Shown piece by piece: positions 15,398-63,571 of a stretch of DNA of 64,000 nucleotides (positions are counted from its first letter, which is position 1; every line of letters begins with the position of its first letter). The position numbers and the translations under genes were made by a program. Source of the stretch: a bacterium (GTDB lineage Bacteria; Patescibacteriota; Minisyncoccia; Moranbacterales; UBA2206); contig JAJYGF010000004.1 in the NCBI GenBank assembly GCA_021785125.1, positions 67,124-131,123 of the forward strand, given 5' to 3'. Below the pieces are notes generated by a model. It had not been told where the DNA came from. It ran no database searches and saw only the letters and a program-made list of their open reading frames with translations.

Positions 15398-15414
15398 ATA
15401 CTCTAGGGGAGTAT
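15398..15414. promoter_or_regulatory. Putative CsoR-family operator (ATACTC-tagGG-GAGTAT inverted repeat)
   Basis: A GC-cored palindrome overlapping the presumptive -10 region, about 20 bp upstream of the csoR-like gene. It resembles Bacillus CsoR boxes (TACCC-N-GGGTA). Confidence 0.45.
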
Positions 15415-15433
15415 GGAATATATCTAAATTCAA

Positions 15434-15703
15434 ATGTCAAAACCCAAAAAAGAAAATATAAAAAGCGATTCGCATGAAAAAGTCTTAAAAAGACTGGCGA
15501 GGGCGGAGGGACAAATCAGGGGCATAAGACGCATGGTGGAAGAAGGGCGCGAATGCATCGATGTTATCCAGCAGGTGACTGCTATCCGGCAAGCTATCGC
15601 AATGTTGGGAATAGAGCTTTTAAAGGATGATTTCATATGCAAAAGAAAAGAGCGAAAAGAAATTGACGAAAAATATTTGGAAACTCTTTTCAAGATAAAA
15701 TAA
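15434..15703 (+). CDS. CsoR/RcnR/FrmR-family metal(loid)-sensing transcriptional repressor
   Basis: LKRLARAEGQIRGIRRMVEEGRECIDVIQQVTAIRQAIAMLGIELL, with a conserved Cys in helix 2 and His/Cys in helix 3. Confidence 0.8.
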   Translation: MSKPKKENIKSDSHEKVLKRLARAEGQIRGIRRMVEEGRECIDVIQQVTAIRQAIAMLGIELLKDDFICKRKERKEIDEKYLETLFKIK

Positions 15704-15705
15704 TC

Positions 15706-17240: not shown

Positions 17241-18167
17241 ATGGAAAATGATATATATGATCTGGCTATAATTGGAACCGGTCCGGCCGGATTGTCCGCT
17301 TCTTTGTATGCGTCGCGTTTCGGCATCAATCACGTCGTGATCGGAGGTCTGATGGGCGGATTGATTTCCGAATCGCATCACATCGACAACTATCTCGGCG
17401 TCGAAGATGCGACCGGATTTGAATTCGGCCAAAAAATAACCGACCATGTCAAAAAGTATGGCGTGGAAATTATTCCGATCCTGGTGCGACATATTGAAAA
17501 AGAAAATAATCTTTTCAAATTGAGTTTGGACAGCACCAAGGAAATAAAAGCCAGGACCATATTGCTCGCGACCGGAACCAAACGACGCAAATTAGGTGCC
17601 AAAGGCGAAGAAGAATTTGCCGGCAAGGGCATTTCCTATTGCGCGACTTGCGATGGATTTTTTTACAAAGGAAAAACCGTGGCCGTCGTGGGTGGCAGCG
17701 ACAGCGCGGCGGGGGCCGCTATCTATCTGGCCGACATTGCCGAAAAAGTTTATGTGATATATCGCGGTTCCGAATTAAGATGCGAGACGTACTGGAAGAA
17801 AAAAATCGAAGAGAATCCGAAAATAAAGGTGCTTTGCGGATATAATCTGAAAGAAGTTGCGGGAGATCAAAAATTACAAAAAGTGATTTTGGATAACGAT
17901 TATGAAGGCAAAAGCGAAATCGAATTGGACGGGTTGTTTATCGAAGTCGGATCCGATCCGAGCGTAGATTTTGCGAAAGATCTGGGAGTGGAAGAGGATA
18001 AAAGTGGATATATAAAAATACGGTCCGATTGCTCCACTTCAATTGAAGGCGTCTGGGCGGCCGGTGACATTACCGACGGTTCGGACAAATTCCGGCAAGT
18101 GATCACAGCGGCAGCCGAAGGCGCGATCGCTGCCCGAAGCATCTTTAATTATCTAAAGAGAAAATAA
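17241..18167 (+). CDS. trxB: Thioredoxin-disulfide reductase
   Basis: FAD-binding motif GTGPAGLSA, redox centre CATCDG, NADPH-binding motif GGSDSAAGAAIYLA. Confidence 0.9.
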   Translation: MENDIYDLAIIGTGPAGLSASLYASRFGINHVVIGGLMGGLISESHHIDNYLGVEDATGFEFGQKITDHVKKYGVEIIPILVRHIEKENNLFKLSLDSTKEIKARTILLATGTKRRKLGAKGEEEFAGKGISYCATCDGFFYKGKTVAVVGGSDSAAGAAIYLADIAEKVYVIYRGSELRCETYWKKKIEENPKIKVLCGYNLKEVAGDQKLQKVILDNDYEGKSEIELDGLFIEVGSDPSVDFAKDLGVEEDKSGYIKIRSDCSTSIEGVWAAGDITDGSDKFRQVITAAAEGAIAARSIFNYLKRK

Positions 18168-29953: not shown

Positions 29954-30016
29954 GAAAGGGGCTTTATTTTTTAGACAATTAGTCAAGTTTTGGCATATGC
30001 AAGAATCTGACTAATA
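29935..30016 (+). repeat. ~85 bp direct repeat, copy 1 (includes the 3' end of ORF 29666-29953, a hairpin-T tract and the 36 bp nested palindrome)
   Basis: AAGCCTCGATCCTGAATAGGAAAGGGGCTTTATTTTTT-AGACAATTAGTCAAGTTTTGGCATATGCAAGAATCTGACTAAT. Copy 2 at 32150 is about 85% identical. Confidence 0.7.
29979..30014. repeat. 36 bp nested palindrome TTAGTCAA-N5-(T/G)GCATATGCAA-N5-TGACTAA, copy 1 of 3
   Basis: ttagtcaaGTTTTggcatatgcaaGAATCtgactaa; the arms and the 12 bp core are conserved and the spacers vary. Copies at 32196-32231 and 44611-44646. Confidence 0.65.
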
Positions 30017-30017
30017 T

Positions 30018-30770
30018 TTATTTTATTTCTTTTCCGCTTTTCCAAGCGATTTCAAAGATCGGTTTGATTGAATTCACGAGCGATTCGGATTCAATGACGA
30101 CAATGAAAGGCTCTTCTTCCAGTGAAGTTATGTCAAGCTTGTTATCATATAAGGTAAAATCCATGGAAAAATCTTTCACATCCGGCAGATAGCGGACCTC
30201 TTGGTTCAATTCTTTGAATTTTCTCATTATTTCCCGATTGAATTCATTGTTTGAAACTAAATGTCTGCCCCTCTGGAGATTTATCAGACCTTTTCTATAG
30301 TTGTTTATCCATTCATCTATGACTTTTGGAAAAACTTTGTCTATCTTTTCATAAGAAGAAATGAAAAATGCATCTTTGGCTTCGTTCATTTCTTTGTAAA
30401 CATTCAGAATCCCTTCTTTTGTCTCATGATAAATTATTTTCGGCCTCACTTTTCCTTTGTTGTGCAAGGTTCGCAACATCGGCAGCATCTCTGAAAAATT
30501 TTTGGTCGTTGTCCGAAGCTGAGTCAAAATAACAGAGGGGTCGAGGGCATGGTAGGTGTTTATCTTTTTATTCGGTACCTCATTCGCATAACCTCGTTTA
30601 ATGAGTCCTTCGAGCAAAACATAAATGATTGAGCGTTTCAGTCCGGTCACTTTTGATATTTCCGTCACGTTGCCTTGCCCCAATTCTAAAAGGGCCAAAT
30701 ATACTTCGGCTTCTTTTTGAGTGAAACCGGTCTGTTCCAATAATTTTACTAGATCTTGATCCATAGGCAT
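30018..30770 (-). CDS. TrmB-family transcriptional regulator
   Basis: LGFTQKEAEVYLALLELGQGNVTEISKVTGLKRSIIYVLLEGLIKRGYA (TrmB N-terminal HTH). The track start at 30794 is a TTG; the first ATG (MPMDQ) is used here. Confidence 0.7.
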   Translation of the reverse strand: MPMDQDLVKLLEQTGFTQKEAEVYLALLELGQGNVTEISKVTGLKRSIIYVLLEGLIKRGYANEVPNKKINTYHALDPSVILTQLRTTTKNFSEMLPMLRTLHNKGKVRPKIIYHETKEGILNVYKEMNEAKDAFFISSYEKIDKVFPKVIDEWINNYRKGLINLQRGRHLVSNNEFNREIMRKFKELNQEVRYLPDVKDFSMDFTLYDNKLDITSLEEEPFIVVIESESLVNSIKPIFEIAWKSGKEIK

Positions 30771-30776
30771 TAACTT

Positions 30777-30825
30777 TGGACATCGGATGTCCAAAAGGCA
30801 AGAAGGCGAGAGACATCCGATGTCT
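30777..30825. promoter_or_regulatory. Two 15 bp palindromes (GGACATC-G-GATGTCC and AGACATC-C-GATGTCT) immediately upstream of the trmB-like start
   Basis: Perfect inverted repeats spaced ~20 bp apart in the 5' region of the regulator gene; a candidate autoregulatory operator. Confidence 0.4.
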
Positions 30826-31025
30826 TTAATTTTCCAAGCTTATTTAGACTCTAACAAAGATAACAATATTTGTCAATATTTTTGATAAAAATAATTTTAA
30901 AATAGCAATTAAAGCCATAATTATGAAATCGATAGTATAAAGATATTGATAAATAACAAACTTTTGTTTATTATCAAACATTGCAAAAATGACAGTTGCT
31001 TAAAAACCAAATAGAGAGGTGAAAA

Positions 31026-31349
31026 ATGCCACTGACAATCAAAAAGGTTTCTAATTTGTGCAGGAAAACAGTTGTGATAAAAACAGTAGTTTTTGAAAGT
31101 CGTAAGGTCACACTTCGCGGAGTAATTTCAAAAATAAGATCAGGACAAAACTTCTGGGCTTTATTAACTGACAAAACTGGCTCGATGAGAATCTGTGGTT
31201 ATGGTAACCAGCTTTATGAAGACAACTACGACTATAGGAAGATAAAAGAGGGCGATACTGTTGTGGTTTCTGGATGTACTTTTGAAACATGGCCAAAAGA
31301 GATTCGTTTGGATATCTACTCCATACAAAAGGCGAAAGAGGAAAAATAA
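31026..31349 (+). CDS. OB-fold nucleic-acid-binding protein (RPA/SSB-like, hypothetical)
   Basis: Pattern VVIKTVVFESRKVTLRGVISKIRSGQNFWALLTDKTGSMRICGYGNQ...IKEGDTVVVSGCTFETWPKEIRLDIYSIQK resembles archaeal-type SSB/RPA OB folds. RBS agagaggtgaaaaATG. Confidence 0.45.
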   Translation: MPLTIKKVSNLCRKTVVIKTVVFESRKVTLRGVISKIRSGQNFWALLTDKTGSMRICGYGNQLYEDNYDYRKIKEGDTVVVSGCTFETWPKEIRLDIYSIQKAKEEK

Positions 31350-31444
31350 ACTTCTTTCTTCACCATCATCTTGCGCGAGGCGAACTTGTCTCGCGCAATC
31401 TAACTGGTGAGGAAAGTTGTTTAACAATCACATAGGAGAATGTC

Positions 31445-31867
31445 ATGGAAAACTGCAAACATGAAAACGAGCATGGCAATTTCTGCAGCAAATGCGGAAC
31501 GCCACTAAAGGAGAAATGCTCTGAATGTGGTAAGACGGAATGTCTAAGTAAAATTAAGAGAATTCAAGAAGAAGCTAGGCAATATGCCGATAAGAAAGTT
31601 TCTAAGAAAGTTGATAACTTTCTGGTTCGGGTTAATTTACTCGGGTCTGCTCTAAGTGTGATAGCAGCTTTTTTAACCGTAAAGATCACTTCAAGGAGGA
31701 TTGATATAGTAGGATTTTCAGCGTGGGTCATAATTGTTGTTGTTTTTTGGGCATTTTCTTTCGTATTTTTGATTATATGGGAAGAGAAAAGAAAAAAAGC
31801 GAAAGAAGATTTTTTCAAAAAACATCCTGATTACGCGGAAATTCTCAAAAAGGCGGAGGAAAAATGA
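31445..31867 (+). CDS. Zinc-ribbon (CxxC x2) N-terminal domain protein with two TM helices (hypothetical)
   Basis: CSKCGTPLKEKCSECGKTEC, then two hydrophobic helices, then a Lys/Glu-rich tail. Confidence 0.4.
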   Translation: MENCKHENEHGNFCSKCGTPLKEKCSECGKTECLSKIKRIQEEARQYADKKVSKKVDNFLVRVNLLGSALSVIAAFLTVKITSRRIDIVGFSAWVIIVVVFWAFSFVFLIIWEEKRKKAKEDFFKKHPDYAEILKKAEEK

Positions 31868-32100
31868 AATCAGATATAGACAAGGTAAAGAAACATCTAA
31901 TGAGGTTGGCATATATAATGTTGCCACTGTCCTTAATTAGTACCCCTTTTGTTTTAAAAAAGGGAGGTAGCTTGCATCTGGATTTTATAGCAGGTGTTTT
32001 CGATTCTATTCTGATCATAGTGCTAGCGCTTGTTTACCTGCCAAAATATGACCGCAGAAGACGGCTAAGGGAGGCGCGGCGCAGAACGGAATCGATATAG
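31864..32100 (+). CDS. Small membrane protein (hypothetical)
   Basis: Two TM segments. The ATGA start overlaps the stop of the previous gene. Confidence 0.35.
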   Translation: MKSDIDKVKKHLMRLAYIMLPLSLISTPFVLKKGGSLHLDFIAGVFDSILIIVLALVYLPKYDRRRRLREARRRTESI

Positions 32101-41419: not shown

Positions 41420-44155
41420 ATGAATAAAAAAGCCAAGAAATTAGTTCTGATCGACGGCAATGCCATCGTTCATCGGGCGTATCATGCGCTGCCGCCGCTC
41501 ACCAACAAAAAGGGCGAGCTGTTGAATGCGGCCTATGGATTCACGACGATCCTGCTCAAAGTTTTGTCCGACATCCAGCCTGATTATATTCTGGCGACTT
41601 TTGATCTGGCCGGCAAGACCTTCCGTCACCATGAATATGAGCAGTATAAAGCGACCAGAGTCAAAGCGCCGGACGAACTGTATGTTCAATTCGACCGCGT
41701 CAAAGAAATCGTGCGCGCTTTCAATATTCCAATTTTTGAAAAAGAAGGGTTTGAAGCGGATGATATGATCGGAACCTTGTCATTTCAGGCTGAGGAAATC
41801 AAAGATTTGGAAACAATCATTGTGACCGGAGATTTGGATACCTTGCAATTGGTCACGCCGAAAACCAAAGTCTATGCCTTGCGAAGAGGGATGAGTGACA
41901 TCACGATTTATGATGAGAAAGCAGTCATGGAAAGATATGGATTCACGCCGGACAAGATGATCGATTTCAAAGGTCTTTGTGGCGACCAATCGGACAACAT
42001 TCCGGGCGTGAAAGGTATCGGTGAAAAAGGCGCCATCAATTTGATCAAAGAATTCGGAACGGTTGAAGATATCTATAAATCGATCGATAAGATAAAAGGG
42101 GCAACGCATGACAAGCTGGAGCGCGACAAGATGAACGCGCTTATGAGCAAGAAATTGGCGACGATCGTGCGCGACGTGCCGGTGAAATTGGAAATAGAAA
42201 AAAGTGCGGCGCATGATTTTGACCGGAAAAAAGTCACGGATCTTTTCCAAGAGTTGAGTTTTTTCAGTCTGATCAAAAGGATTCCGGCGCAGGAAGGACT
42301 CAAAGGTTCAACCTTTGATATTCCTGAAGATGCTTCAAGGTTGAACCTTGGAGAATCTGGTGGCGTCAAGGATTTCAAGTTTGAAACAGTTTCCGAAAAA
42401 ACCCTGCGAAAATTCCTGGAAGACAAAAATGAAGTAGCTATTTATATTCGTGCTATCGATGAAGATATTCGCGGCATCGCGATCGCGTACAAAACCGGAC
42501 GCGCCGGATACATTGAATGGAATGATGCGACCAAAAAAGAATTGCAAAATTTTCTAGAAAATAAAAAAAGCAAAAAGATCGGCTATGATTTAAAGAATGA
42601 TCTGGAAATTTTAGCGACAAATAAGATCTTGCTTGCCGGCTTGGATTTCGATGTGATGCTTGGCGCATACGTGGCTAATCCGGGCGTGAATATCGAGCTT
42701 AGAACTTTGGTTCTGGAAGAATTCGGCGAGGAATTGGAGGAAAATAAAAAAGGTCAACTGGGTTTGGGCTTGGAATCGCCGGAAAGCGTGATGCTTGCGG
42801 CTTGCCGCAAAGCGGACTATATCTGGAAATTGAAGAATATATACGCGGAAAAAATCAAAGAAATTACAAATGAACAATCAAAGAGCAAGGAGCTAAGCTC
42901 CTTTAAAGATAAAAGGAGCTTAGCTCCTTCGCTGCGAAATGTTTTTGATAATCTAGAGATGCCATTGGTTGAAATTTTGGCAGGGATGGAAAAAGCCGGC
43001 ATCAAACTCAACACCATAATTTTCGAAGGCATATCCAAAAAGATCGAAAAAAGGATCTCCAACCTGGAAAGAAATATTTACGATCTGGCCGGAACGGAAT
43101 TTAATATCAATTCGCCGAGGCAATTGGCGGATGTTCTTTTCATAAACTTAAAACTTCCGACGGTGGATATCAAAAAACTCAAAACCGGATATTCCACGGC
43201 GGCCGGCGAATTGGCAAAATTGCGGGGCGAGCATAAAATTATCGAGAAAATCGAGGAATATCGCGAAATTTTCAAGTTGAAAACAACTTACCTGGACACT
43301 CTTCCGACCTTGGTTGATGAGGATTCGCGTATCCATACCAAATTTAATCAGGCGGTGACGGCGACCGGCAGACTGTCTTCTTCGGAACCAAATCTGCAAA
43401 ATATTCCGATCCGCACCGATGTCGGACAGTTGTTGCGCACCGCTTTCGAGGCGGAGGATGGATACAGTCTAGTTGGCGCAGATTATTCACAGATCGATCT
43501 GCGCGCTGTGGCGCATGTCAGCCGTGATAAAAATATGATTGAAGCTTTCCAAAAAGGCGAGGATATCCATCGTGCCACGGCGGCTTTGATAAATAAAGTT
43601 ACACCGTCGCAAGTGACGGAGAAGATGCGCGGATATGCGAAGGCTTTGAATTTCGGCATTATTTATGGCATGAGCGTGTTTGGATTGTCGTCGCGCACCG
43701 GTTTGGACCGCGACGAGGCCAAGAAGTTCATCGATGCATATTTCGAGAAATTTTCGGGTGTGGCGGAGTATATGAAAAATACCCGGGATTTTGTTAAGCA
43801 AAATAAATATGTCGAGACGGAATTCGGTCGCCGGCGTTATATCCCGGAAATCAATTCGCCGAATTTCCAGGTGCAAAATGCGGCGGAGCGGATGGCGATC
43901 AACATGCCGATCCAAGGTTTGTCCGCGGACATCGTGAAGCTGGCCATGATTGACGCACAAAAACTGATCGACAAAGATTATAAAGATTCAGCCAAGATGG
44001 TTTTGCAGGTGCATGACGAACTGATTTTTGAAGTAAAAGAAGATGTTTGCGAACAATTCGCGCTAGATGTGAAAGATGTGATGGAAAATGTGTATAAATT
44101 ACGCGTTCCTTTAGTTGTTGATGTAAAAATCGGCGACAACTGGGGTGAAATATAA
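41420..44155 (+). CDS. polA: DNA polymerase I (5'-3' exonuclease plus polymerase; the 3'-5' exo motifs appear degenerate)
   Basis: N-terminus LVLIDGNAIVHRAYHA (FEN/5' nuclease). Motif A region DYSQIDLRAV, motif B RGYAKALNFGIIYGMS, motif C QVHDELIFEV. Confidence 0.9.
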   Translation: MNKKAKKLVLIDGNAIVHRAYHALPPLTNKKGELLNAAYGFTTILLKVLSDIQPDYILATFDLAGKTFRHHEYEQYKATRVKAPDELYVQFDRVKEIVRAFNIPIFEKEGFEADDMIGTLSFQAEEIKDLETIIVTGDLDTLQLVTPKTKVYALRRGMSDITIYDEKAVMERYGFTPDKMIDFKGLCGDQSDNIPGVKGIGEKGAINLIKEFGTVEDIYKSIDKIKGATHDKLERDKMNALMSKKLATIVRDVPVKLEIEKSAAHDFDRKKVTDLFQELSFFSLIKRIPAQEGLKGSTFDIPEDASRLNLGESGGVKDFKFETVSEKTLRKFLEDKNEVAIYIRAIDEDIRGIAIAYKTGRAGYIEWNDATKKELQNFLENKKSKKIGYDLKNDLEILATNKILLAGLDFDVMLGAYVANPGVNIELRTLVLEEFGEELEENKKGQLGLGLESPESVMLAACRKADYIWKLKNIYAEKIKEITNEQSKSKELSSFKDKRSLAPSLRNVFDNLEMPLVEILAGMEKAGIKLNTIIFEGISKKIEKRISNLERNIYDLAGTEFNINSPRQLADVLFINLKLPTVDIKKLKTGYSTAAGELAKLRGEHKIIEKIEEYREIFKLKTTYLDTLPTLVDEDSRIHTKFNQAVTATGRLSSSEPNLQNIPIRTDVGQLLRTAFEAEDGYSLVGADYSQIDLRAVAHVSRDKNMIEAFQKGEDIHRATAALINKVTPSQVTEKMRGYAKALNFGIIYGMSVFGLSSRTGLDRDEAKKFIDAYFEKFSGVAEYMKNTRDFVKQNKYVETEFGRRRYIPEINSPNFQVQNAAERMAINMPIQGLSADIVKLAMIDAQKLIDKDYKDSAKMVLQVHDELIFEVKEDVCEQFALDVKDVMENVYKLRVPLVVDVKIGDNWGEI

Positions 44156-44489
44156 TATGAAAAATAAAATTAAAAAAATTTTTCTCAACTTAATTCCGAT
44201 ACTTCTAATGATCGGATTGATTCCAATAGTTTCGAGCGATTATATTTTAACGTTAGTTTATATTGCCATAATTGCGATTGCTTTCTTCATAAGATATGAA
44301 AAGCGCGAATATGTCTTTCTGACCTTCGGATTTTTCGGGATGATAATTTCCGAGTATATCTTTACGAGCACCAAGGTCGAAACCTTCGATCGCAACAGTC
44401 TTTTCGGTCTGATGCCGCTCTGGCTGCCGTTTTTGTGGGCATATTCTTTCGTGGCGATGAAACGGGCGATAAAGATTCTTGAAGTATGA
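44145..44489 (+). CDS. Small polytopic membrane protein (hypothetical)
   Basis: 3-4 TM helices. Overlaps the polA stop; the true start may be the second ATG. Confidence 0.4.
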   Translation: MKYNMKNKIKKIFLNLIPILLMIGLIPIVSSDYILTLVYIAIIAIAFFIRYEKREYVFLTFGFFGMIISEYIFTSTKVETFDRNSLFGLMPLWLPFLWAYSFVAMKRAIKILEV

Positions 44490-44493
44490 TAAA

Positions 44494-44560
44494 AGCTTCG
44501 CGTAACACGCGGGGCTTTTTTCTTTTAAGCGCTGGCTAAAATAGCAGCGCTTTTTTATTT
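44494..44560 (+). terminator. Two consecutive hairpin terminators; the second (AGCGCTGGCTAAAATAGCAGCGCTTTTTT) is duplicated at 45618
   Basis: aaagcttcgcgtaacacgcggggctttttt followed by agcgctggctaaaatagcagcgcttttttattttt. Confidence 0.6.
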
Positions 44561-44610
44561 TTCAAAAAGTGTTATTTTATGACGGCCGTCTGAATATGAT
44601 AAAAATCCAA

Positions 44611-44646
44611 TTAGTCAAAATATTGCATATGCAAAAATCTGACTAA
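44611..44646. repeat. 36 bp nested palindrome, copy 3 (upstream of the GHKL/STAS operon)
   Basis: ttagtcaaAATATtgcatatgcaaAAATCtgactaa. Confidence 0.65.
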
Positions 44647-44736
44647 TAACCAGAGAGTTTTCTTTATAAAGCCTATATATTTTGACGAAGAAAGTGTTTT
44701 GCGATAGAGTTATATAAGAAAAATAATGCGATTACT

Positions 44737-45312
44737 ATGTCAGTTGATTTGGAAAAATTAGCCTTTGAATGGATGTCTGCCAATCCCGAAGAAGCTCAGA
44801 AAGAAAGCGAGTATTATTGCCCGACACGGGATATTTTTCAGGCGCGGTTGGAGAAAATGACGCGCAATTTATTGCGAGAAAATATTGTTCCGGAGGAAGA
44901 TGTATACATATTGTCGGCTATGGCAGGAGAAATCGGCAACAATTCATTTGATCACAATCTTGGAAAATGGCCGGATGTGATCGGAATTTTTTTTGGATAT
45001 GAAATATTGGGCGGTAAAATAAAATCCATCCTGGCTGATCGCGGGCAAGGAATTTTGGCAACATTGAAAAAAGTAAAGCCGGAGCTTGATCGGGAAAGTG
45101 AGGCGATAAAAACAGCTTTTTTGGAAAAAATATCCGGCAGGGCGCCGGAAAACAGAGGCAACGGACTTAAGTTCGTAAAAGAAAATATCGAAGCGAAAAA
45201 GATGCATTTGACCTTTATTTCCGGCAATGCCAAGATGGAATTGAACGACAGAATGGAAATTTTGGAAATTGAAAATAAAGTTCAAGGGTGCTTGGCGATA
45301 TTAAGTTTTTAA
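44737..45312 (+). CDS. GHKL-superfamily (HATPase_c) ATPase/kinase-like protein, RsbW/SpoIIAB-like
   Basis: N box EIGNNSFDHN, G1 box DRGQG, G2 box GNGLKF. No sensor or DHp domains. Confidence 0.6.
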   Translation: MSVDLEKLAFEWMSANPEEAQKESEYYCPTRDIFQARLEKMTRNLLRENIVPEEDVYILSAMAGEIGNNSFDHNLGKWPDVIGIFFGYEILGGKIKSILADRGQGILATLKKVKPELDRESEAIKTAFLEKISGRAPENRGNGLKFVKENIEAKKMHLTFISGNAKMELNDRMEILEIENKVQGCLAILSF

Positions 45313-45316
45313 GCGT

Positions 45317-45598
45317 ATGCGCATCGAACTGAAAAAATTTGGAGAAATTCTGATTTCTCGTCCGGCCGGAAGAGAAGCGTATTTAGCCATGTCGGCTTAT
45401 GTGACAAAAGATTTGGATGAAAACGAACCGATCGAGGTCGATTTTTCCGGTGTAAAAGTTCTGACTCCTTCATGGGCTGATGAAGTAATTGTTCCGCTTG
45501 CCCGAAAATTCAAAAATGTAAAGCTTGTTAATGCGGAAAATGCAACTGTTCAGGCGACGCTCAAAACTTTGCGGGAATATTCTGATTTGAAGATTTAA
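45317..45598 (+). CDS. STAS-like (DUF4325-type) small protein, putative partner of the GHKL ATPase
   Basis: 93 aa. MRIELKKFGEILISRPAGREAYLAM...IEVDFSGVKVLTPSWADEVIV matches the STAS/DUF4325 pattern. Starts 4 nt after the ATPase stop. Confidence 0.5.
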   Translation: MRIELKKFGEILISRPAGREAYLAMSAYVTKDLDENEPIEVDFSGVKVLTPSWADEVIVPLARKFKNVKLVNAENATVQATLKTLREYSDLKI

Positions 45599-45617
45599 AC
45601 TTTTTTCGTACGAAAAT

Positions 45618-45650
45618 CGCTGGCTAAAATACCAGCGCTTTTTATTTTTT
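45618..45650 (+). terminator. Hairpin terminator, near-identical to 44528-44560
   Basis: tcgctggctaaaataccagcgctttttatttttt. Confidence 0.6.
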
Positions 45651-45721
45651 CAAAAAATGCTAGAATAGCTTCACTAGCTTTTTAGCTGCATTAGCTTTTT
45701 AGCCTTAAAACAAAGTAAAAA

Positions 45722-46099
45722 ATGCTACATTCATATAAGGATTTAATAGTTTGGCAAAGATCAATGGAATTGGTCGTAGAAGTGTATAAATTATGCGAGC
45801 AATACCCGAAAGAGGAGATTTATGGACTTACCTCTCAAACCAAAAGATCGGCCGTGTCTATTCCATCCAACATCGCTGAAGGCAGATTTAGAGGAACCAA
45901 AAAAGATTTTACTCAATTTTTAAGGATTGCTTATGCATCCGGTGCTGAATTGGAAACTCAAATTGAAATAGCTAAGAGATTAGGAAAAACAAAAAATTTA
46001 GATTATACAAAAGTTGACCAGCTGCTTTTAGAGGTTATGAAAATGTTAAACAAGATGATTCGTGGCATGAATCCTAAGCAAGCTAATGAAGCTAATTAA
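45722..46099 (+). CDS. Four-helix-bundle '23S rRNA intervening-sequence protein' family protein
   Basis: YKDLIVWQRSMELVVEVYKLCEQYPKEEIYGLTSQTKRSAVSIPSNIAEG is a near-consensus N-terminus of that family. Confidence 0.7.
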   Translation: MLHSYKDLIVWQRSMELVVEVYKLCEQYPKEEIYGLTSQTKRSAVSIPSNIAEGRFRGTKKDFTQFLRIAYASGAELETQIEIAKRLGKTKNLDYTKVDQLLLEVMKMLNKMIRGMNPKQANEAN

Positions 46100-55980: not shown

Positions 55981-57390
55981 ATGAAAAAGACGAGAATCGT
56001 CGCGACCGTCGGTCCGGCGTCAGATTCGAAAGAAACCATGAAAAAGATGATCGAGGCGGGAGCGAATGTGTTCCGGCTCAACTTTTCTCATGGCACGCAC
56101 GAATCGCACCAGAAGATAATCGATATAGCCAGGGAATTGCAGTCGGAAATGAAAAGGCCGATCGGGCTCTTGGCCGATCTGCAAGGTCCCCGCATCAGGG
56201 TCGGCAATGCGGAACCGTTTGAGATAAAAAAGGGCGAGATTATTTATGTCAGTGACAAAAAAATTTCCGACGAAAAAGAACTCATCATCGATTCCGACGG
56301 CGTGGCCGAAGCGCTCCGGACGGGAGATAGGATTTTGATCGAAGATGGCCTGCTGAAATTGGAGGTGACGGAGAGGCTGGAAAACGCGGCCAAAGCCAAG
56401 GTTATGAACGGCGGCACCATAAGACCGAGAAAAGGCATAAACGTGCCGGACACGAAACTGAAATTCGGCGCGGTTACCGAAAAGGACAAGCGGGACTTGG
56501 AGTTTGCCCTGAAAAACGAAGTGGAATTTGTGGCCTTGTCATTTGTCAGCAATGGCGGAGAAATAGATGAGACGAGGAATGATATGAAAAAAATTTTGGG
56601 CCGTGAAAAGAGTCTGCCGCAAATTGTTTCCAAGGTAGAAAGGAAAGAGGCGATCAAAAATATCGATGAGATCGTGGCTGCGTCAGATGTGGTGATGGTG
56701 GCTCGGGGAGATTTGGGAATAGAGCTGGATGAAAGCAAAGTCGTTATCTACCAGAAAGAAATAATTGCCAAGTGTTTGCGCGCGGTCAAGCCGGTCATCG
56801 TGGCTACCCAGATGCTGGATTCCATGATCAATAATCCGATCCCGACCCGCGCGGAAGTTTCCGATGTTTCAAATGCCGTGATCGACCACACGGACGCGGT
56901 GATGCTTTCGGGCGAGAGCGCCAACGGCAAGTATCCTGTCGAGGCAGTGGAGACGATGACGCATATCATAGAAGACACGGAAGCCTCGCCGTTCGACGAC
57001 ATCAATCCGGGCTATCTGGATGAGCATATCTTTACCGATTACGCTTCAATTATAAATAGCGCGCATGAGATGGCCAAAAGTTCGAATGCCAAAGCTGTTG
57101 TGCTCTTTACGGAATCCGGTTTCACCGCCCGCATGATGGCGCATCATCGTCCGAACCAGCTGATGCTGGTCGGAACTCATAATCTCAAGACATATAATCA
57201 GATGTCGATTGTCTGGGGGGCAAGAGCCTATCTATTTGAAACGGATGATCGCGAAGAATTGATCGAATTCATGATAGAAAGAAACAAAAAAGCCGGACGT
57301 TTGGCGGCTGGAGACAAAATCGTGGTAATTCTCGGACGCACGCCCGGAGCCAAGGACCTGGCACTGGTCGGAATCAGGATAGTTGAATAA
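55981..57390 (+). CDS. pyk: Pyruvate kinase
   Basis: MKKTRIVATVGPASDSKETMKKMIEAGANVFRLNFSHG and the motifs MVARGDLGIE and SGESANGKYP. Confidence 0.9.
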   Translation: MKKTRIVATVGPASDSKETMKKMIEAGANVFRLNFSHGTHESHQKIIDIARELQSEMKRPIGLLADLQGPRIRVGNAEPFEIKKGEIIYVSDKKISDEKELIIDSDGVAEALRTGDRILIEDGLLKLEVTERLENAAKAKVMNGGTIRPRKGINVPDTKLKFGAVTEKDKRDLEFALKNEVEFVALSFVSNGGEIDETRNDMKKILGREKSLPQIVSKVERKEAIKNIDEIVAASDVVMVARGDLGIELDESKVVIYQKEIIAKCLRAVKPVIVATQMLDSMINNPIPTRAEVSDVSNAVIDHTDAVMLSGESANGKYPVEAVETMTHIIEDTEASPFDDINPGYLDEHIFTDYASIINSAHEMAKSSNAKAVVLFTESGFTARMMAHHRPNQLMLVGTHNLKTYNQMSIVWGARAYLFETDDREELIEFMIERNKKAGRLAAGDKIVVILGRTPGAKDLALVGIRIVE

Positions 57391-57444
57391 TTTTTCATAA
57401 GTTGCTAGATTATATGCGAGGCGGAAAAAGCCTCGCTTTATATT

Positions 57445-57531
57445 GGAAGGGTCGCCTAGTGGTTTATGGCACCGCCTTGGAAAGGCGGCATACTATAAAA
57501 GGTATCGGGAGTTCGAATCTCCCCCCTTCCG
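57445..57531 (+). tRNA. tRNA-Ser (anticodon GGA), class II with a long variable arm
   Basis: Acceptor GGAAGGG/CCCTTCC, D-arm GCC-tagtggtttat-GGC, anticodon stem CCGCC/GGCGG with loop ttGGAaa, an 18 nt variable arm, T-arm GGGAG-ttcgaat-CTCCC, discriminator G. CCA is not encoded. Confidence 0.8.
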
Positions 57532-57643
57532 CAGTGACAACTTTTTATCGCACAGACTCAAACAGCCGAGACTAAGCGGCGACTCGAGCGCTTATAAAAA
57601 GCTAAAAAATACGAAGCAATTTCTGCTCCGTATTTTTTGTTTT

Positions 57644-58975
57644 CTACTCTTCAATCAAGGTTATCTTTTTGTCTTTGTAATTCAACCGGCTGCGCAGATT
57701 GGCCAGTAGTTCTCGCTTGTCGGACACACTACCCTCTTTGAATAGGTATTTGGCATATTGGCGGATATCGACTTCATTTTCTTCCACTAAATTCTGGCCA
57801 CTTTTTCCATTGACCACTTTTTGCAGTTTGTTGAATCGACGAATTTCATCTTCCAGTTTCTGCCGCATTCCCAGCTCGTTGATGTCCACTTTGTCTATGA
57901 TTTTTAGCAGTTCTTCAATCAATTCTTCCTCCCGGATATATTTGTTTTTGCAGTGCCGATCCCTAGCTCGCGAGCAGGAGTAATAGATATACCTGGCGTG
58001 CGTACCATCTTTGAGCTGTTTGTATTTTTCCTCAGCTGATATGCCCGATCCGCAGTAGCCGCAGGTGAATAATTTAGTAAAGGCGAATTCTTTATTTTCT
58101 CTGACAATTTTATCTCTTTTGAGCCACGCTTGGGCTTTTTCAAATACCTCTTGGGTAATTATCGGATCATGTTTTCCGGTATACCAGTTACCGCTTTTGG
58201 CTGGATATTCAAAGACTCCATAATAGAAAGGATTATCCAGCGTCCGATACACTCCAGCCAGTGTCAGCGGCTTATTGCCTCTCGTGTAAAAATTTAATTC
58301 GAATCTGAGCCAGTGATATATCTTTCTGCCTGAATAATGTTCGTAAGCTACTTTTTCAAATATCTTTTTGATAATCGGCGCTCTTTGCGGATCGAGAAGA
58401 AGTTGGCATTTTTTATCCATGTGTTTCTGGTTGAGATATCCCAGCGGCGCGACCGTCGGCCAGAGTCCCATCTCGCATCGGGCGCGAAGACCTCTTTTCA
58501 CATTGATGCCTCGGTTGTCATTTTCCAGCTTGGCTTGCGAGCCAAGAATCATCAGCAGGAACTTTTCATTTGGAGAATTGGTGAATCGTTGCCCGTAAGT
58601 TCGGATTTCTTGCAGTAATTTAGCATCCATAAGGTCGACTATTTTTCCTAGGTCACCGGCATTTCTAGAAATACGATCCGGCGCCCAGGTCATAATACCA
58701 TTAAATTTGCCGGATTTGATTTCTTCCACAATTTCATTAAAGACTGGTCTTTGCCCAGTCTCCTTGGCGCTGTGCGATTCTCGTTTTATTTCCACGATTT
58801 CCAGATTTTCTCGCTCCGCCAGTTGCATCATTTCTTTTATTTGGGAGTCGATGGAAAGCACCTGTCTTTCCTCCGACTCGGTCGATTTTCGGGCATAAAG
58901 ACAGTAACGTACTGGAATCGCTACTGGCTGGGCTTGGGCTGGTAGCCCTAATTGGCTGGCATTTGGATAGCTCAT
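57644..58975 (-). CDS. Large serine recombinase (resolvase/integrase family)
   Basis: Catalytic N-domain VRYCLYARKSTESEERQVLSIDSQ...MTWAPDRISRNAGDL, recombinase domain GLWPTVAPLGY, and a Zn-ribbon CGYCGSGIS...YYSCSRARDRHC. Lies 112 bp from tRNA-Ser. Confidence 0.85.
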   Translation of the reverse strand: MSYPNASQLGLPAQAQPVAIPVRYCLYARKSTESEERQVLSIDSQIKEMMQLAERENLEIVEIKRESHSAKETGQRPVFNEIVEEIKSGKFNGIMTWAPDRISRNAGDLGKIVDLMDAKLLQEIRTYGQRFTNSPNEKFLLMILGSQAKLENDNRGINVKRGLRARCEMGLWPTVAPLGYLNQKHMDKKCQLLLDPQRAPIIKKIFEKVAYEHYSGRKIYHWLRFELNFYTRGNKPLTLAGVYRTLDNPFYYGVFEYPAKSGNWYTGKHDPIITQEVFEKAQAWLKRDKIVRENKEFAFTKLFTCGYCGSGISAEEKYKQLKDGTHARYIYYSCSRARDRHCKNKYIREEELIEELLKIIDKVDINELGMRQKLEDEIRRFNKLQKVVNGKSGQNLVEENEVDIRQYAKYLFKEGSVSDKRELLANLRSRLNYKDKKITLIEE

Positions 58976-59200
58976 AGGTTTATTGGTTATTTCTTACTAC
59001 CCAATGAATGACGCAATCCTTTGAAGGAGTCAAGAGCGTCCCGAGTAGGTAAGCTGTTGACAACTAATAGCTTAAAAGGCTCTTGAAAACTTGCTGGAAA
59101 TTGCTTGAATTGTGGAATTACAAAAAAGTCCATTTTAGCATTTACCAAAGCCACAATTTAAGCTAAACTTAAGCCGAGGTAATTCAAATTAATAAAAATT

Positions 59201-59674
59201 ATGAATAATTCAAAAAGCGTTTTTGACGAAAAATTTACGAATCTCTATAGCCTTACTAAAACATTGAAGTTTGAATTGAAACCAGTGGGGAAAACATTGG
59301 ATAATATGCGCATGCATTTGAAATATGATAAGAATTTACAAACATTTTTAGTTGATCAGGAAATCAAAGACGCGTATCAAATTCTTAAGCCCGTATTTGA
59401 CAAACTACATGAAGAATTTATCACGAAAAGTTTGGAGAGTGAAAAAAATAAAAGCCTTTTTAATTTTGAAAATTATTTAGAGTTGCGGAAAAAATTGGCA
59501 TTAATAAATAAAAAAAAGGAAGAAGTAGAATATAAAAAAGTAGAAAGTGATTTTACAAAAGAAGAAATAAAATTGCGGAAAATGTTTGATGATGTTTGGA
59601 AAAATGAAGGGGAAAATTTTAAAAACAAAGTCGGTGTAAATGAAAAAGGGAAAGCAATCTTACTACTTTTGTAG
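59201..59674 (+). pseudogene. cas12a: Cas12a (Cpf1) N-terminal fragment: WED-I plus the start of REC1 only, 157 aa, truncated
   Basis: VFDEKFTNLYSLTKTLKFELKPVGKTLDN...DQEIKDAYQILKPVFDKLHEEFI aligns with Fn/AsCas12a residues ~4-80 (F.[21 protein letters not shown]...KDYKKAKQIIDKYHQFF). The ORF stops at 157 aa and its last codons run into a CRISPR repeat. Confidence 0.7.
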
Positions 59675-59799
59675 ATTAAAATCGTCCATCCATTGGAATT
59701 TTGCCGAATACCGATATAAGATTTCTACTTTTGTAGATCAGGCTCAAAGACAATCCGCTTTGCGCCGAATACCGATATAAGATTTCTACTTTTCAATAA
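59641..59799 (+). CRISPR. Type V-A (Cas12a-type) CRISPR mini-array: 3 repeats (the first and last degenerate) and 2 spacers
   Basis: Central repeat GCCGAATACCGATATAAGATTTCTACTTTTGTAGAT (36 nt, 59703-59738) ends with the Cas12a 5' handle UCUAC-UUUU-GUAGAU. Repeat 1 (59641-59676) keeps only ...CTACTTTTGTAGAT. Repeat 3 (59764-59799) matches for 30 nt then diverges. Spacers TAAAATCGTCCATCCATTGGAATTTT and CAGGCTCAAAGACAATCCGCTTTGC. Confidence 0.7.
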
Positions 59800-59832
59800 A
59801 CTTAGAACAAACAAAATCAACAAAAAACTGAC

Positions 59833-60768
59833 GTGAGAACATTTACCGAATTATTCAATTTAATATTGACCGCGGATAAGGAGACAAGCCGCAAAGCGGC
59901 GCGGGAGGTGAGAAAAGCGGTGTATGGATCCGATGATCGAGGCGGGTATGAGATCATAAAATCCATCATCAATGATGCTCCCGCGAAATACGAAAAGATA
60001 ATGGAAGATTGGAGGCGGGAGAATTTTGTCATGGCTATATCCGTAATGTATTTTCTGCACGACAAAGAAAATAAGCCGGACTTCTTGTTTCCTTGGTTAT
60101 TTAAACTTCTTCAGCATGAAAGAGGCAACATCCGTCATGCCGCGGTGCGCATGATTGGCAACGAGCTCGGACCGCTAACCGTGCACCTGCGCGTACCTGA
60201 ATGGAGATCAATCCATCCGGGATATTCAACCGAAAAAGCGGACCGCATCCTCTTTGAGTTGTATGTCAATCTGAACAAAATGATGTCCGACTTATGGAAG
60301 CCTTCATATAAAAGGTATAGATACATTTCTTCATTGCCCGCCAGTCCTTACAAGTCGGTGCAAATGCTGCTGGCGGAGTTGGAAGAAGATTGTGGCAAAA
60401 AATACATTGATGATTTGATAAAACGGATAGATGACATGAACAGCCTGGATAATACTTTAATTTCCGTGGTTAAGACAGAATCCAAACAACAAATTCTGGA
60501 AAGACGAAAAGAAATTGAAGCCGAGATTTCAGAAATGCTCAAAGAAACCGAAAGTGATTTTGAATTGGAGGACGTTAAAGAAGCGATATATAACGAAGAA
60601 GAGCAGGATGATTTTATGCATTTAGTCACTATGTTTGATCGCGGCGGCGATGCTTCGGAATTGAGTAATGTTTTGGAACTGGTCACGGATGCCTGGAATT
60701 ATTTCCCGCATAAAATTCTCGGCGGCATTTCTCCCGCCGAACAGGCGCTAAAATATGGAAAAAAATGA
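59833..60768 (+). CDS. Hypothetical alpha-helical protein immediately downstream of the mini-array
   Basis: 311 aa, no recognised motif, acidic C-terminal half. Followed by the terminator-like caagaggtcgtcttttttt. Confidence 0.4.
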   Translation: MRTFTELFNLILTADKETSRKAAREVRKAVYGSDDRGGYEIIKSIINDAPAKYEKIMEDWRRENFVMAISVMYFLHDKENKPDFLFPWLFKLLQHERGNIRHAAVRMIGNELGPLTVHLRVPEWRSIHPGYSTEKADRILFELYVNLNKMMSDLWKPSYKRYRYISSLPASPYKSVQMLLAELEEDCGKKYIDDLIKRIDDMNSLDNTLISVVKTESKQQILERRKEIEAEISEMLKETESDFELEDVKEAIYNEEEQDDFMHLVTMFDRGGDASELSNVLELVTDAWNYFPHKILGGISPAEQALKYGKK

Positions 60769-61339
60769 AGTAATTATTATTTCATGCTATACCAAAAATA
60801 AGGCAAGAGGTCGTCTTTTTTTAATTCTCAAATAATTATGGTGAGGCTCGGGGATATTCATATACTTTGCTTTTCCCGCAATCTTCTTTGTTTTAAAACA
60901 CAAGAAATGAAACAGGTTTGCTGGAGTTTTGCTTTTACAGGTTTTGGCATTTATTGGCATTTCGCTGCGGCTGCTATTGACTAGAAAACTATCATGGAAC
61001 AGTTCGTTTACATTGTACTACGCGTTTTATTCTTTATTCACTGGGTTTTTGGGAAAATGGGACACAGAAATGGAATATCCCATACTAGTGTTCCATTTGT
61101 TCCGTTTGCTCTATTTAGACTCCGACTCAAACACCTAAAATCCAGTTCTGTTCAGATGTTTCAAAAAACCTTATAATACTTGTATCTGGGGTACTTATCT
61201 CGAGATGCCCGCAGAGACCATTTTTATCGTGAGCGCATAGCCGAATCGACTGTAACAAACTTAAAAATGGCACGTATAACATTATTATTGGCATTGGCAG
61301 ATTATTGCTTTTATTTTTGTGTGCTGATATAATTACACG

Positions 61340-61882
61340 GTGTCAAGCGTTTTAATAAAATTAAGTAAAAAAATGAATTTAGAAGGAAAAATCGGAGGGT
61401 ATAACAAAAAAACCTTGGTTAGCGCAGGGTTGATCGTGGTTATCGCTCTCGGAATGTTCTACATCGGAGCCGAGTATGAGAAAGGCAAGTTGTCCAAATT
61501 GAACAGTACTTGCAGTCTGGGGAAAGCTAAAAAGAGCAGCAAAAAACATTCGGTTGTAACGCCGAGCGCCAATGCCATTTCCGGAACTATTACGGCCAAG
61601 GATGACAAAACCGTAACCTTGAAAATGGCCGACGGGACAACCAAAATTGTGGATTATACCGCGGCTACCACTGTGGGCAAAAATGCCAAGAGCACGATTG
61701 CCGATCTGGTTATCGGAGAAGAAGTTACAGTCAGCGGCCAGCCGAATGCTGACGGCACTTTCGCGGCTGACAATATACAGAAAACCAAAACTGCAGCTGT
61801 GGGTACGAGCGTAAATTCAACTCCTGCCGCAACTCCGGCTTCCAACCAAACTTCTTCGACCGGACAGGCGTCTTCCAATTAA
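61340..61882 (+). CDS. Membrane-anchored secreted protein, Thr/Ala-rich (hypothetical)
   Basis: N-terminal TM (LVSAGLIVVIALGMFYIGA), an OB/BOF-like middle region (TITAKDDKTVTLKMADGTTKIVDY) and a T/S/A-rich tail. Confidence 0.4.
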   Translation: MSSVLIKLSKKMNLEGKIGGYNKKTLVSAGLIVVIALGMFYIGAEYEKGKLSKLNSTCSLGKAKKSSKKHSVVTPSANAISGTITAKDDKTVTLKMADGTTKIVDYTAATTVGKNAKSTIADLVIGEEVTVSGQPNADGTFAADNIQKTKTAAVGTSVNSTPAATPASNQTSSTGQASSN

Positions 61883-61942
61883 ATATTAGACTGAAAGCAA
61901 GCTGTTTTTTGGATAGACATCAAGATCCACTGGTAGTGGGTC

Positions 61943-63571
61943 TTGTGCTTTTCCGAAAAAGGTCGGACAAGAACTATGGAAAACTTGAGAAATATCATTC
62001 GACGGAACAAGGCAAGCCTTATTGTTTTTGCGGCGATTTTTTCTGTCGGAATATTTCTTAGGGTTTATAATTTCAACGGACTTTTGGTTTTTGGGTTCGA
62101 CCAATCTCGCGATGCCCAACTGGCAAAGAACATCATCGAGAATCACCAATCGCTCCCGCTGCTTGGCCCGCATGCGATGGGTACCCGTTTCAAACTCGGG
62201 CCGGCTTATTATTATTTTCAATATCTGTCGGCCGTTATCTTCGGCGACCGGCCGCAGAGCCTGGCTTATCCCGATCTTTTATTTTCCATAGCGACTATCC
62301 CGCTTCTTTTCTTCTTCCTTAGGAAGTATTTCAATAAGGATGTGTCGTTGGCCCTGGCCGGGCTGTGGAGCATTTCTTTTTTTGCCGTCAAGTTCTCGCG
62401 CTTTGCCTGGAATCCCAACTCTTTGCCATTTTTCACGCTGCTTTTGCTGTACGCCCTTCTGGAAATCGCGGACAGCGAAAAGGGGAGACATAAAAATTGG
62501 TGGCTGGCCGTGGCTGGAATAGCTTTGGGCGTGGGAGTTCAACTGCATACTTTGTCTCTTGTGATTCTGCCTGTTGTGGCCGTCCTTTTTATCTGGTCAA
62601 AAGTCGGCTTGAAGGAAAGGCGGGCCAAATATATAGCGATCATTTTTGCGGCCGCTCTTCTGTTGAATGTTCCGCAGGTTGTTTCCGAGATGAAAACCGG
62701 AGGAAGAAATACCCGAGATTTCATTGTTGGAGTAAAAGAAGAGCTTAGAAACCACACCGATTTGGCAACCAATCTTTTTGCAGACGTTTCTTGCCATGTG
62801 CAGGCCAACTCACTGATAGTTTCCTCTTATGGCGACAATGTCGGATGTTCTTTCGGGGATATTTTTTATAAACAAGAAGGCGGATTTTATTATGCCAGCC
62901 TGCTGGGGAAAATTGCCTTCGCTTTCGCCTTTTCCGTTTTCGGATATCTGGCCCTTTTCAGCTTTTGGAAAAAGCCGCCCGCCGGAAAAAACGATGATTT
63001 CATACGGTTGATTTCCATGTTTGTGGCGGTATCTTTTCTGGCTTTCTTCATGGTTGCTGTCGGTATGACCGACCGGTATTATCTGGTGTTTGCTTTTGTG
63101 CCGATCGTGCTTCTCGGGCTGATATATGAGCGCTTCCTGAAGAAAATCCGTTACGGGAAAAGTATTTTTATAATTATGCTTTTGGTCCTGGCGGTCCAAA
63201 ACGCGGTCACTTTGAAAAAATATTTTACCCCTTTCGAAAGGATCGGGCTTATGGAGGATTCGATGTTGTCGGAAAACAGAGCGCTCGCAAATTTCATATC
63301 GGTCAATGTCGGGACGGACAGAAAGGCCTATATCAGCCAGAAGCAAGGCGATTGGAGGATACTTAATTATTTCTTGACGGGGAAAGTATATCTGATTCAT
63401 ATCGGGAAAAATAGCGGATTTTTGGATCAGTCGGTGCCATATTTCCTGATCACCGACGAAGCCCATAAAAAAACCATCATCCAAGCGGAACAGGATCTTT
63501 TCGGATATGCGCCAGCCAAGCAGGCGTCATTCGGCACTTTCATCATCACTGAATTTTTATCTCAAAAATAG
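61943..63571 (+). CDS. GT39/ArnT-like (PMT family) membrane glycosyltransferase
   Basis: About 12 TM segments; the N-terminal loop FGFDQSRDAQLAK is the DE/DxD-like motif of the ArnT/PMT family. Confidence 0.65.
   Translation: MCFSEKGRTRTMENLRNIIRRNKASLIVFAAIFSVGIFLRVYNFNGLLVFGFDQSRDAQLAKNIIENHQSLPLLGPHAMGTRFKLGPAYYYFQYLSAVIFGDRPQSLAYPDLLFSIATIPLLFFFLRKYFNKDVSLALAGLWSISFFAVKFSRFAWNPNSLPFFTLLLLYALLEIADSEKGRHKNWWLAVAGIALGVGVQLHTLSLVILPVVAVLFIWSKVGLKERRAKYIAIIFAAALLLNVPQVVSEMKTGGRNTRDFIVGVKEELRNHTDLATNLFADVSCHVQANSLIVSSYGDNVGCSFGDIFYKQEGGFYYASLLGKIAFAFAFSVFGYLALFSFWKKPPAGKNDDFIRLISMFVAVSFLAFFMVAVGMTDRYYLVFAFVPIVLLGLIYERFLKKIRYGKSIFIIMLLVLAVQNAVTLKKYFTPFERIGLMEDSMLSENRALANFISVNVGTDRKAYISQKQGDWRILNYFLTGKVYLIHIGKNSGFLDQSVPYFLITDEAHKKTIIQAEQDLFGYAPAKQASFGTFIITEFLSQK

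Follow-up and report, generated by a model that had tools for sequence, protein, structure and literature searches.

It is well known that CRISPR-Cas loci degenerate and that arrays occur as orphans. Canonical type V-A loci, such as those of the Francisella/PREFRAN type, carry an array downstream of and co-oriented with cas12a, with 36-nt repeats that end in a 3' UCUAC-N4-GUAGAU handle, spacers of 25 to 29 nt and a degenerate terminal repeat. A site in Francisella hispaniensis that lost its V-A system still has its last, degenerate repeat and a standalone repeat unit (Shmakov et al. 2023, PMC10120712), and the mini-arrays of viruses and other mobile genetic elements (MGEs), like regulatory ones (cr-like RNAs; PMC10120712), consist of two to three repeat-like units, the distal one degenerate, with no leader or adaptation genes nearby. 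Here we describe a small type V-A array in a 64,000-nucleotide stretch of a Moranbacterales genome (UBA2206; assembly GCA_021785125.1, contig JAJYGF010000004.1, positions 67,124 to 131,123), the whole of which we call the window. An earlier note on this DNA had described the feature as an orphan mini-array and likened it to those that MGEs use to retarget a host Cas effector. In our analysis it is very probably the trailer-end remnant of a canonical V-A locus (cas12a-cas4-cas1-cas2-leader-array) that was left by deletion, most likely as a fossil. Its parts, in window coordinates, are as follows.

59201-59662, plus strand: 5' fragment of cas12a, codons 1-154 (WED-I and the start of REC1), identified by Cas12a homology
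59663-59676, plus strand: 3' fragment of a CRISPR repeat, CTACTTTTGTAGAT, the final 14 nt of the repeat, with an impaired handle
59677-59702, plus strand: spacer 1, 26 nt, the same in all five assemblies that contain the locus
59703-59738, plus strand: complete 36-nt type V-A repeat, GCCGAATACCGATATAAGATTTCTACTTTTGTAGAT, the sole complete copy, identical to the repeats of the related locus L092
59739-59763, plus strand: spacer 2, 25 nt, in whose place the near-identical strain L004 has another spacer, of 29 nt
59764-59793, plus strand: truncated terminal repeat, 30 nt, without GTAGAT and hence without the 3' stem, otherwise an exact copy of the repeat

All the canonical traits named above recur here; the stub corresponds to the Cas12a N-terminus, and fragments preserved in L092 match type V Cas1 and Cas2. 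Unlike a canonical locus, the window lacks 88% of cas12a, all of cas4, cas1 and cas2, and the leader, and it has one complete repeat. The likeness to the F. hispaniensis remnant lies in the deletion of cas genes with one endpoint in the array and in the retention of the degenerate terminal repeat at the same chromosomal flank. The two differ in that the upstream endpoint in the window is inside cas12a (codon 154) and not at a standalone repeat upstream of the gene, and in what is retained, namely two spacers and a stub that can be translated and is fused to part of a repeat. With mini-arrays the window shares the number of units, the degenerate distal unit and the want of a leader and adaptation genes nearby. 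Unlike them, its array had no MGE or cas-promoter target and was on no viral contig in the databases that we searched, it is contiguous with a cas12a pseudogene, and its sister copy, with a cas1 fragment (cas1'), cas2 and a leader, shows that it comes from a full array.

The identity of the stub was established by several independent comparisons. The open reading frame (ORF) at 59201-59674 (157 aa, plus strand, starting MNNSKSVFDEKFTNLYSLTKTLKFELKPVGKTL) is co-oriented with the array, reads through the repeat fragment and stops at 59672-59674. Against the PDB, phmmer matched its product to 6iv6_A (E 1.7e-9, Cas12a residues 4-125) and also to LbCas12a, AsCas12a and FnCas12a; the NCBIfam model TIGR04330 (cas_Cpf1) and the PADLOC Cas12a models (E 9e-24) agreed. 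A search of 1.84 billion representative proteins returned 315 homologues, and in every full-length one (1200-1477 aa) the match lay at the N-terminus. The intact 1341-aa Cas12a of a Peregrinibacteria metagenome-assembled genome (MAG; L006) is 50% identical to the stub over residues 3-139, and the alignment of the two stops exactly at ...KAIL, which is codon 154 and nucleotide 59662, directly ahead of CTACTTTTGTAGAT. At this codon the relatives run on with ...KGKDILTEKGYKILTE..., and the window with CTACTTTTGTAGAT. The deletion junction is placed at ~59662|59663, with cas12a cut after 12% of its length. The gene is thus joined directly to the interior of a CRISPR repeat.

This placement changes the first of the three repeats given by the earlier note. 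The complete and the 30-nt copies are real, but in the stretch proposed as the first repeat (59641-59676) only the 17 nt at 59660-59676 resemble the repeat (16/17), and the preceding 19 nt have no repeat similarity. Since Cas12a protein homology extends to codon 154, ending at 59662, the clearly repeat-derived part is reduced to the 14 nt at 59663-59676, and a start of the array at 59641 takes in ~20 nt that code for Cas12a. Nor is the array an orphan, as a cas12a 5' fragment abuts it.

Nothing else of the system remained in the window. Full-length Cas12a with its PI, RuvC and Nuc domains is absent from it, TIGR04330 being covered at profile positions 2-106 of 1288 only. When 47 Cas12a, Cas4, Cas1 and Cas2 queries were run against the 64-kb window and a 5.7-kb extension of it in L001, the stub was the only match; the window thus lacks adaptation genes, as the earlier note had stated, and the leader found in L092 and in the intact locus L093 is missing as well. 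An insertion of an MGE that split cas12a and left the remainder elsewhere in the window was considered and rejected, there being no further Cas homology. The stub-array sequence, junction included, was recovered five times, from no fewer than four datasets: in the NCBI MAG GCA_027428275.1, in two MEGAHIT assemblies from ENA and in two per-run assemblies from Logan. We found no terminator-like site between stub and array and no convincing promoter upstream of the stub, the latter scan being for sigma-70 sites and uninformative for bacteria of the Candidate Phyla Radiation (CPR).

Within the array, the repeat units are spaced 62 and 61 nt start to start, and the spacers, with the lengths reported previously (26 and 25 nt), are dissimilar to each other. 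The repeat GCCGAATACCGATATAAGATTTCTACTTTTGTAGAT is unique in the window at up to 3 mismatches, and shuffles of the window gave 0 matches. Folding of the complete repeat confirmed the 5-bp stem that had been predicted (UCUAC/GUAGA, 4-nt loop, -4.8 kcal/mol). The handle ahead of spacer 1 forms a stem of 4 bp, one pair being lost, and is altered at positions -15 and -18; in published structures of Cas12a with its CRISPR RNA (crRNA), U(-15) pairs with A(-2) and A(-18) contacts U(-10). The terminal truncated copy gave no stem. One of the three copies is complete, and the only canonical handle is the second, ahead of spacer 2. The hairpin handle of the repeat, the regular spacing with unique spacers and the linkage of the repeat to cas12a and to type V adaptation genes together identify a type V-A array. 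A search of 57000-62000 with Rfam 15 (E<=1) returned tRNA-related matches only and no curated CRISPR repeat RNA family. A 46-aa "hypothetical protein" has been called at 59640-59780 on the plus strand (L001 gene 10440-10580; 66 aa in its L004 equivalent); it lies wholly over repeats and spacers and is almost certainly spurious.

The origin of the remnant is best seen in a relative, L092, from the same sample set, with which the window shares two more features downstream of the array.

59833-60768, plus strand: p311, a conserved 311-aa gene directly downstream of the array and common to the L092 module
60803-61212, no strand assigned: conserved stretch of ~410 nt with no convincing gene, 93.7% identical to L092 3860-4270, at the end of the shared module

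In L092, a C-terminal Cas1 fragment is followed by an intact cas2, a 165-nt leader, four repeats with three spacers, a truncated terminal repeat, the flank and a p311 homologue (1306-2241, 91% amino acid identity). The Cas1 fragment comprises the C-terminal 83 residues and is of type V (TIGR04329 positions 232-305 of 317). The L092 repeats are exactly of the GCCGAATACCGATATAAGATTTCTACTTTTGTAGAT type, the truncated terminal repeat and its flank are identical to those of the window, and the three spacers differ from ours; by blastn, nucleotide identity is 92% over 59697-60804 and 93.7% over 60803-61212. Since L092 carries the same truncated copy and flank, the repeat without a 3' stem is the ancestral form and a genuine array end, as the earlier note had taken it to be. 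The remaining genes of L092 are absent from the window, and the module stands there in a different genomic context.

The intact locus L093/L094 has the order recA-cas12a (1335 aa)-cas4-cas1-cas2-leader-array. Its Cas2 is the closest relative of that of L092 (86% identity), its leader is similar, and its repeat agrees at 33 of 36 positions. The assignment of the window repeat to Cas12a is borne out by both relatives, an identical repeat following the type V Cas1 fragment, cas2 and leader in L092 and the 33/36 variant following intact cas12a-cas4-cas1-cas2 in L093. From these arrangements, the ancestral module was cas12a-cas4-cas1-cas2-leader-array-p311. The window keeps both ends of this module and L092 its 3' half, and therefore the two lineages decayed independently. 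With L093 as a ruler, the window lineage has lost at least ~5.6 kb. Despite the closeness of adaptation module, leader and repeat, the N-terminus of L093 Cas12a is only 42% identical to the stub, which suggests shuffling of effector and adaptation modules or fast evolution of REC1.

Further observations concern the shared module. At the contig end (L092 1-600), the Cas1 remnant of L092 adjoins a P-loop kinase-like gene that is unrelated and oppositely oriented, and a 1.6-kb insertion with extra small genes lies in L092 between p311 and the ~410-nt stretch. No Pfam, NCBIfam or PADLOC model matched p311, and no relative was found in IMG/VR; the gene stands beside a V-A array in two lineages and may be cargo of the CRISPR module. 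The stretch at 60803-61212 had no Rfam match.

Taking these comparisons together, we infer a single deletion event, or possibly a short series, of at least ~5.6 kb, which would have joined codon 154 of cas12a to the final 14 nt of an internal repeat. All of cas12a past that codon would have gone with it, as would cas4, cas1 and cas2, the leader and its promoter, and the spacers nearest the leader. What is left is the 157-codon stub ORF, a crippled handle with spacer 1, an intact repeat with spacer 2 and the degenerate terminal repeat, which is ancestral. Lacking an effector, adaptation genes and a leader, the locus most likely has no function in this cell. Transcription that starts at the cas12a promoter and reads through might at best give one properly handled guide (spacer 2), if a Cas12a is encoded elsewhere in the genome.

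Several points weigh against this account. Queries with the stub and with Cas2 found no close intact ancestor, the relatives being 42-62% identical at the N-terminus and the best full-length Cas12a ~61%, which rules out a nucleotide-level reconstruction of the junction. The reading frame of the stub is free of frameshifts and internal stops, which fits a recent deletion but also selection. The Cas search spanned 64 kb plus 5.7 kb of the genome, and a second Cas12a in trans is possible. Finally, spacer 2 is polymorphic between near-identical strains.

This polymorphism was seen in L004, which has the same junction and spacer 1 and, as its second spacer, a different sequence of 29 nt. Beyond spacer 2, L004 and the window have 7 differences in 6.2 kb, 0 of them between 55472 and 59739. 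Since the spacer differs between strains that are otherwise so close, the array was still changing after the truncation. In the simplest explanations, repeat-repeat recombination removed different spacers from an intermediate that had three, or the spacer was exchanged by recombination with a second array; neither requires Cas1-Cas2. Active acquisition is a conceivable cause, but the spacer that changed sits at the trailer end of an array without a leader.

The earlier note had proposed a search for protospacers, and we made it with six spacers, three from the window lineage (including the L004 alternative) and three from L092. No target was found in the window (up to 3 mismatches), in 103 fetched loci (up to 4 mismatches), in IMG/VR (20-mers; databases of CPR phages are sparse), or in GenBank phages and PLSDB plasmids, for which the six spacers were concatenated. 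Against the cas12a upstream region the best seed in 58900-59260 was 6 nt or less, without a TTTV protospacer adjacent motif (PAM), and neither full nor seed-type complementarity with a PAM was found elsewhere in the window. The alternative spacer of L004 matches exactly, over 13 nt from its 5' (seed) end, 18025-18037 on the plus strand, inside a thioredoxin-reductase-like gene (17241-18167); the 4 nt ahead of the match read CGGT and are not a TTTV PAM, and with an expectation of ~0.002 per spacer the match is probably chance, though odd. The exact repeat had no match in JGI metagenome contigs or in IMG/VR, and a degenerate pattern of the repeat family had none in IMG/VR.

The remnant sits in a variable slot, in and beside which lie the following features.

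57445-57532, plus strand: tRNA-Ser(GGA), found by ARAGORN (Rfam tRNA, 55.7 bits), the left landmark of the slot
57533-57551, no strand assigned: candidate left attachment (att) repeat, CAGTGACAACTTTTTATCG, with a 9-mer, TTTTTATCG, shared with 61212-61229
57644-58975, minus strand: large serine recombinase, 443 aa, divergent from the cas12a fragment, recognised by Pfam domains
61212-61229, no strand assigned: candidate right att repeat, CAGAGACCATTTTTATCG, exactly where homology to L092 ends

In an alignment with L100 and L101, the sequences of the three genomes diverge directly after the 3' end of tRNA-Ser. The window has pyruvate kinase (PK), tRNA-Ser, the block serine recombinase-cas12a'-array-p311-~400 nt-DUF5666-PMT, and then DnaG-RpoD; L101/L102, with 80% PK identity, have LemA-M48-...-PK-tRNA-Ser-Fic-DnaG-RpoD. 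The closest named PKs are those of Candidatus Moranbacteria (76-78% identity). The GC content of the slot is 0.39-0.41, against 0.45-0.48 in the flanks. The 9-mer TTTTTATCG lies within a similar 18-19-nt stretch 10 nt past the tRNA and again at the end of the L092 homology; ~1.1% of size-matched random window pairs have a 9-mer in common.

The recombinase has the domains Resolvase (PF00239), Recombinase (PF07508) and Zn_ribbon_recom (PF13408), all above their cutoffs. With Ccr/XisF-like recombinase islands the slot has in common this Resolvase, Recombinase and Zn-ribbon architecture, the position at the edge of a variable segment by a tRNA, and short candidate direct repeats. It differs from them in scores far below the family cutoffs (the best NCBIfam match, CcrB-like, gave 131 bits against a cutoff of 900, and XisF was also below its own) and in that the att repeats are candidates and no conspecific empty site was found. 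IMG/VR contigs contain homologues of the recombinase (54-77% identity), and in one case tRNA-Ser occupies the same relative position. A conserved pairing of recombinase and cas12a was rejected, since the gene that precedes the intact cas12a of L006 is unrelated and the IMG/VR homologues have no cas12a or repeats nearby; likewise, no viral contig carrying the repeat or p311 was found in IMG/VR. An island origin of the V-A module is plausible. Its remnant occupies the variable slot that tRNA-Ser and dnaG delimit, beside a large serine recombinase, and so the original locus was probably brought in as the cargo of an integrative island. The link to MGEs drawn by the earlier note gains partial, indirect support from this location, and the idea of a purpose-built mini-array gains none.

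Elsewhere in the region, a second large serine recombinase (520-541 aa) follows just after dnaG-rpoD in L001 (18362-19924, ~8 kb past the window end) and in L101 (16878-18503); it could be either a conserved recombinase or a sign of another integration hotspot. Three 2-kb bins of the window (14001-16000, 30001-32000 and 44001-46000) have a low GC content (0.36-0.37, background ~0.44) and may be further islands.

To place the truncation in a wider context, we inspected 80 of 408 metagenome loci with confirmed matches to the cas12a N-terminus. The related gene was full length in 56, cut by the contig end in 16 and truncated within the contig in 8 (6 distinct). Including the loci found by protein matches, cas12a 5' fragments followed by V-A repeats were found in at least three other lineages. 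In L009/L010, 168 codons are followed by 15 repeats, with a junction that falls exactly on the 5' edge of a complete repeat and has a TTTG 28 nt upstream, and the junction of L009 is independently reproduced in L010. In L027, ~190 codons precede one handle, and in L063, 74 codons and ~28 nt precede one repeat. Other truncations were joined to unrelated DNA (L007, L062 and L023) or to an insertion sequence (IS) transposase (L064, L065 and L067). The latter represent a different route of V-A inactivation, with cas12a cut at about codon 520 and the IS-type transposase adjoining on the opposite strand (L065 3430-4513, and also in L064 and L067). One more stub-like locus, L056, was set aside as a probable chimera, with a coverage of ~1 and a fusion to helicase-like sequence.

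The array-fused stubs (the window, L009, L027 and L063) keep 75-190 of ~1300 codons. A clustering of the four breakpoints in the first 200 codons, tighter than expected from uniform placement, is suggestive. Because junction types differ among loci, no single mechanism is established. Recombination between a spacer and its protospacer fits L009 and was not adopted for the window, whose junction lies inside a repeat. We hold it rather unlikely that such fusions are a recurrent, non-random outcome, whether of a specific mechanism (for example, recombination between a self-spacer and its protospacer inside cas12a) or of retention through the cas12a promoter for use by a Cas12a in trans.

Some of these loci have peculiarities of their own. 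L009 contains a tandemly duplicated block of six spacers (8465-9222, spacers 2-7 being the same as spacers 8-13). The stubs of L009 (7905-8400) and L027 (5996-6560) have several in-frame TGA codons where relatives have Gly (KPV*ETL and KPVGKTL), a pattern that suggests genomes with genetic code 25, as in Gracilibacteria and Absconditabacteria. In L007, a contig of 671 kb, the handle-like sequence GTCTATACAACTCTTGTAGAT (7805-7829) lies ~170 nt upstream of a lone frameshifted cas12a stub and may be a degenerate form of the standalone repeat unit reported upstream of cas12a (PMC10120712). Two IMG/VR loci (L103 5989-6264 and L104 550-771) have a 91-aa ORF of which the first ~78 residues are a Cas12a N-terminus and the remainder is unrelated; three copies of the iteron-like repeat GGGGTGTCAACTT follow, with no more Cas12a homology in 6 kb, and they may reflect a provirus or plasmid inserted into a host cas12a.

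The foremost alternative to a fossil is a guide-only locus that still works, with stub and array transcribed from the cas12a promoter, the crRNAs (that of spacer 2 at the least) processed and used by a Cas12a that a second locus or a co-resident element provides in trans, and the fusion retained by selection. It could account for an ORF that is open over 154 codons and runs into the array without a terminator-like site, for the one perfect handle ahead of spacer 2, for the spacer polymorphism between near-identical strains, and for the independent fusions of cas12a 5' ends to repeats in L009/L010, L027 and L063, all with short stubs (75-190 codons) and with Cas12a handles broadly conserved among the loci. 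It is at odds with the absence of Cas12a, Cas4, Cas1 and Cas2 beyond the stub in 64 kb plus 5.7 kb, with the deleted leader and promoter and the damaged first handle, and with the lack of a protospacer for any spacer in the databases searched; the sister module L092 is also without an effector, which points to general decay, and the polymorphism is at the trailer end, not the usual site of spacer addition. We therefore regard a working locus as having only a slim chance of being correct.

A mini-array borne by an MGE, redirecting the host Cas12a against competitors or repressing cas expression as regulatory mini-arrays do, is less probable still, and we consider it very doubtful. The adjoining large serine recombinase and tRNA-Ser, the variable slot of lower GC, the candidate att repeat of 9 bp found at either end of the module and the different genomic context of the module in L092 would all suit mobility. 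However, the array is fused to codons 1-154 of a cas12a pseudogene and has lost its leader, as an internal deletion of a full locus leaves it; because of this fusion, and because the sister copy retains cas1', cas2 and the leader, the array derives from a complete locus and did not evolve as a mini-array of the kind that the earlier note proposed. No IMG/VR contig had the repeat family, p311, or a close Cas12a N-terminus plus repeat, the recombinase homologues there lack nearby cas12a or repeats, and no PAM-flanked complementarity, full or seed-type, links the spacers to the region upstream of cas12a or to the rest of the window. That the junction of stub and repeat is a chimeric join, from repeat collapse or strain mixing, is the least credible of the alternatives, with next to no chance of being right. 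Repeats do commonly break or mis-join metagenome assemblies, and two related strains (L004 and L092) coexist in sample ERZ27233565, but the identical junction is present in the NCBI MAG, the two ENA MEGAHIT and the two Logan per-run assemblies, and the analogous junction of L009 was independently reproduced in L010.

As the remnant of a V-A locus left by deletion, the locus is an ordinary decay product, a further example of known CRISPR-Cas locus decay. It corrects the annotation of two "hypothetical proteins", the one of 157 aa being a cas12a pseudogene fragment and the one of 46 aa a spurious ORF on a CRISPR array. It is also a caution for Cas12a mining and for the scoring of "orphan arrays" as weapons of MGEs, in which flanking fragments of cas genes should be looked for first. 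The recurrent short cas12a stubs fused to repeats provide a small testable lead on how CRISPR-Cas systems are lost. For these bacteria, the window documents the decay of a class 2 locus in a streamlined CPR genome, the same V-A module having been inactivated differently in two related lineages, with the cas12a 5' end and the array tail left in one and cas1'-cas2-leader-array in the other.

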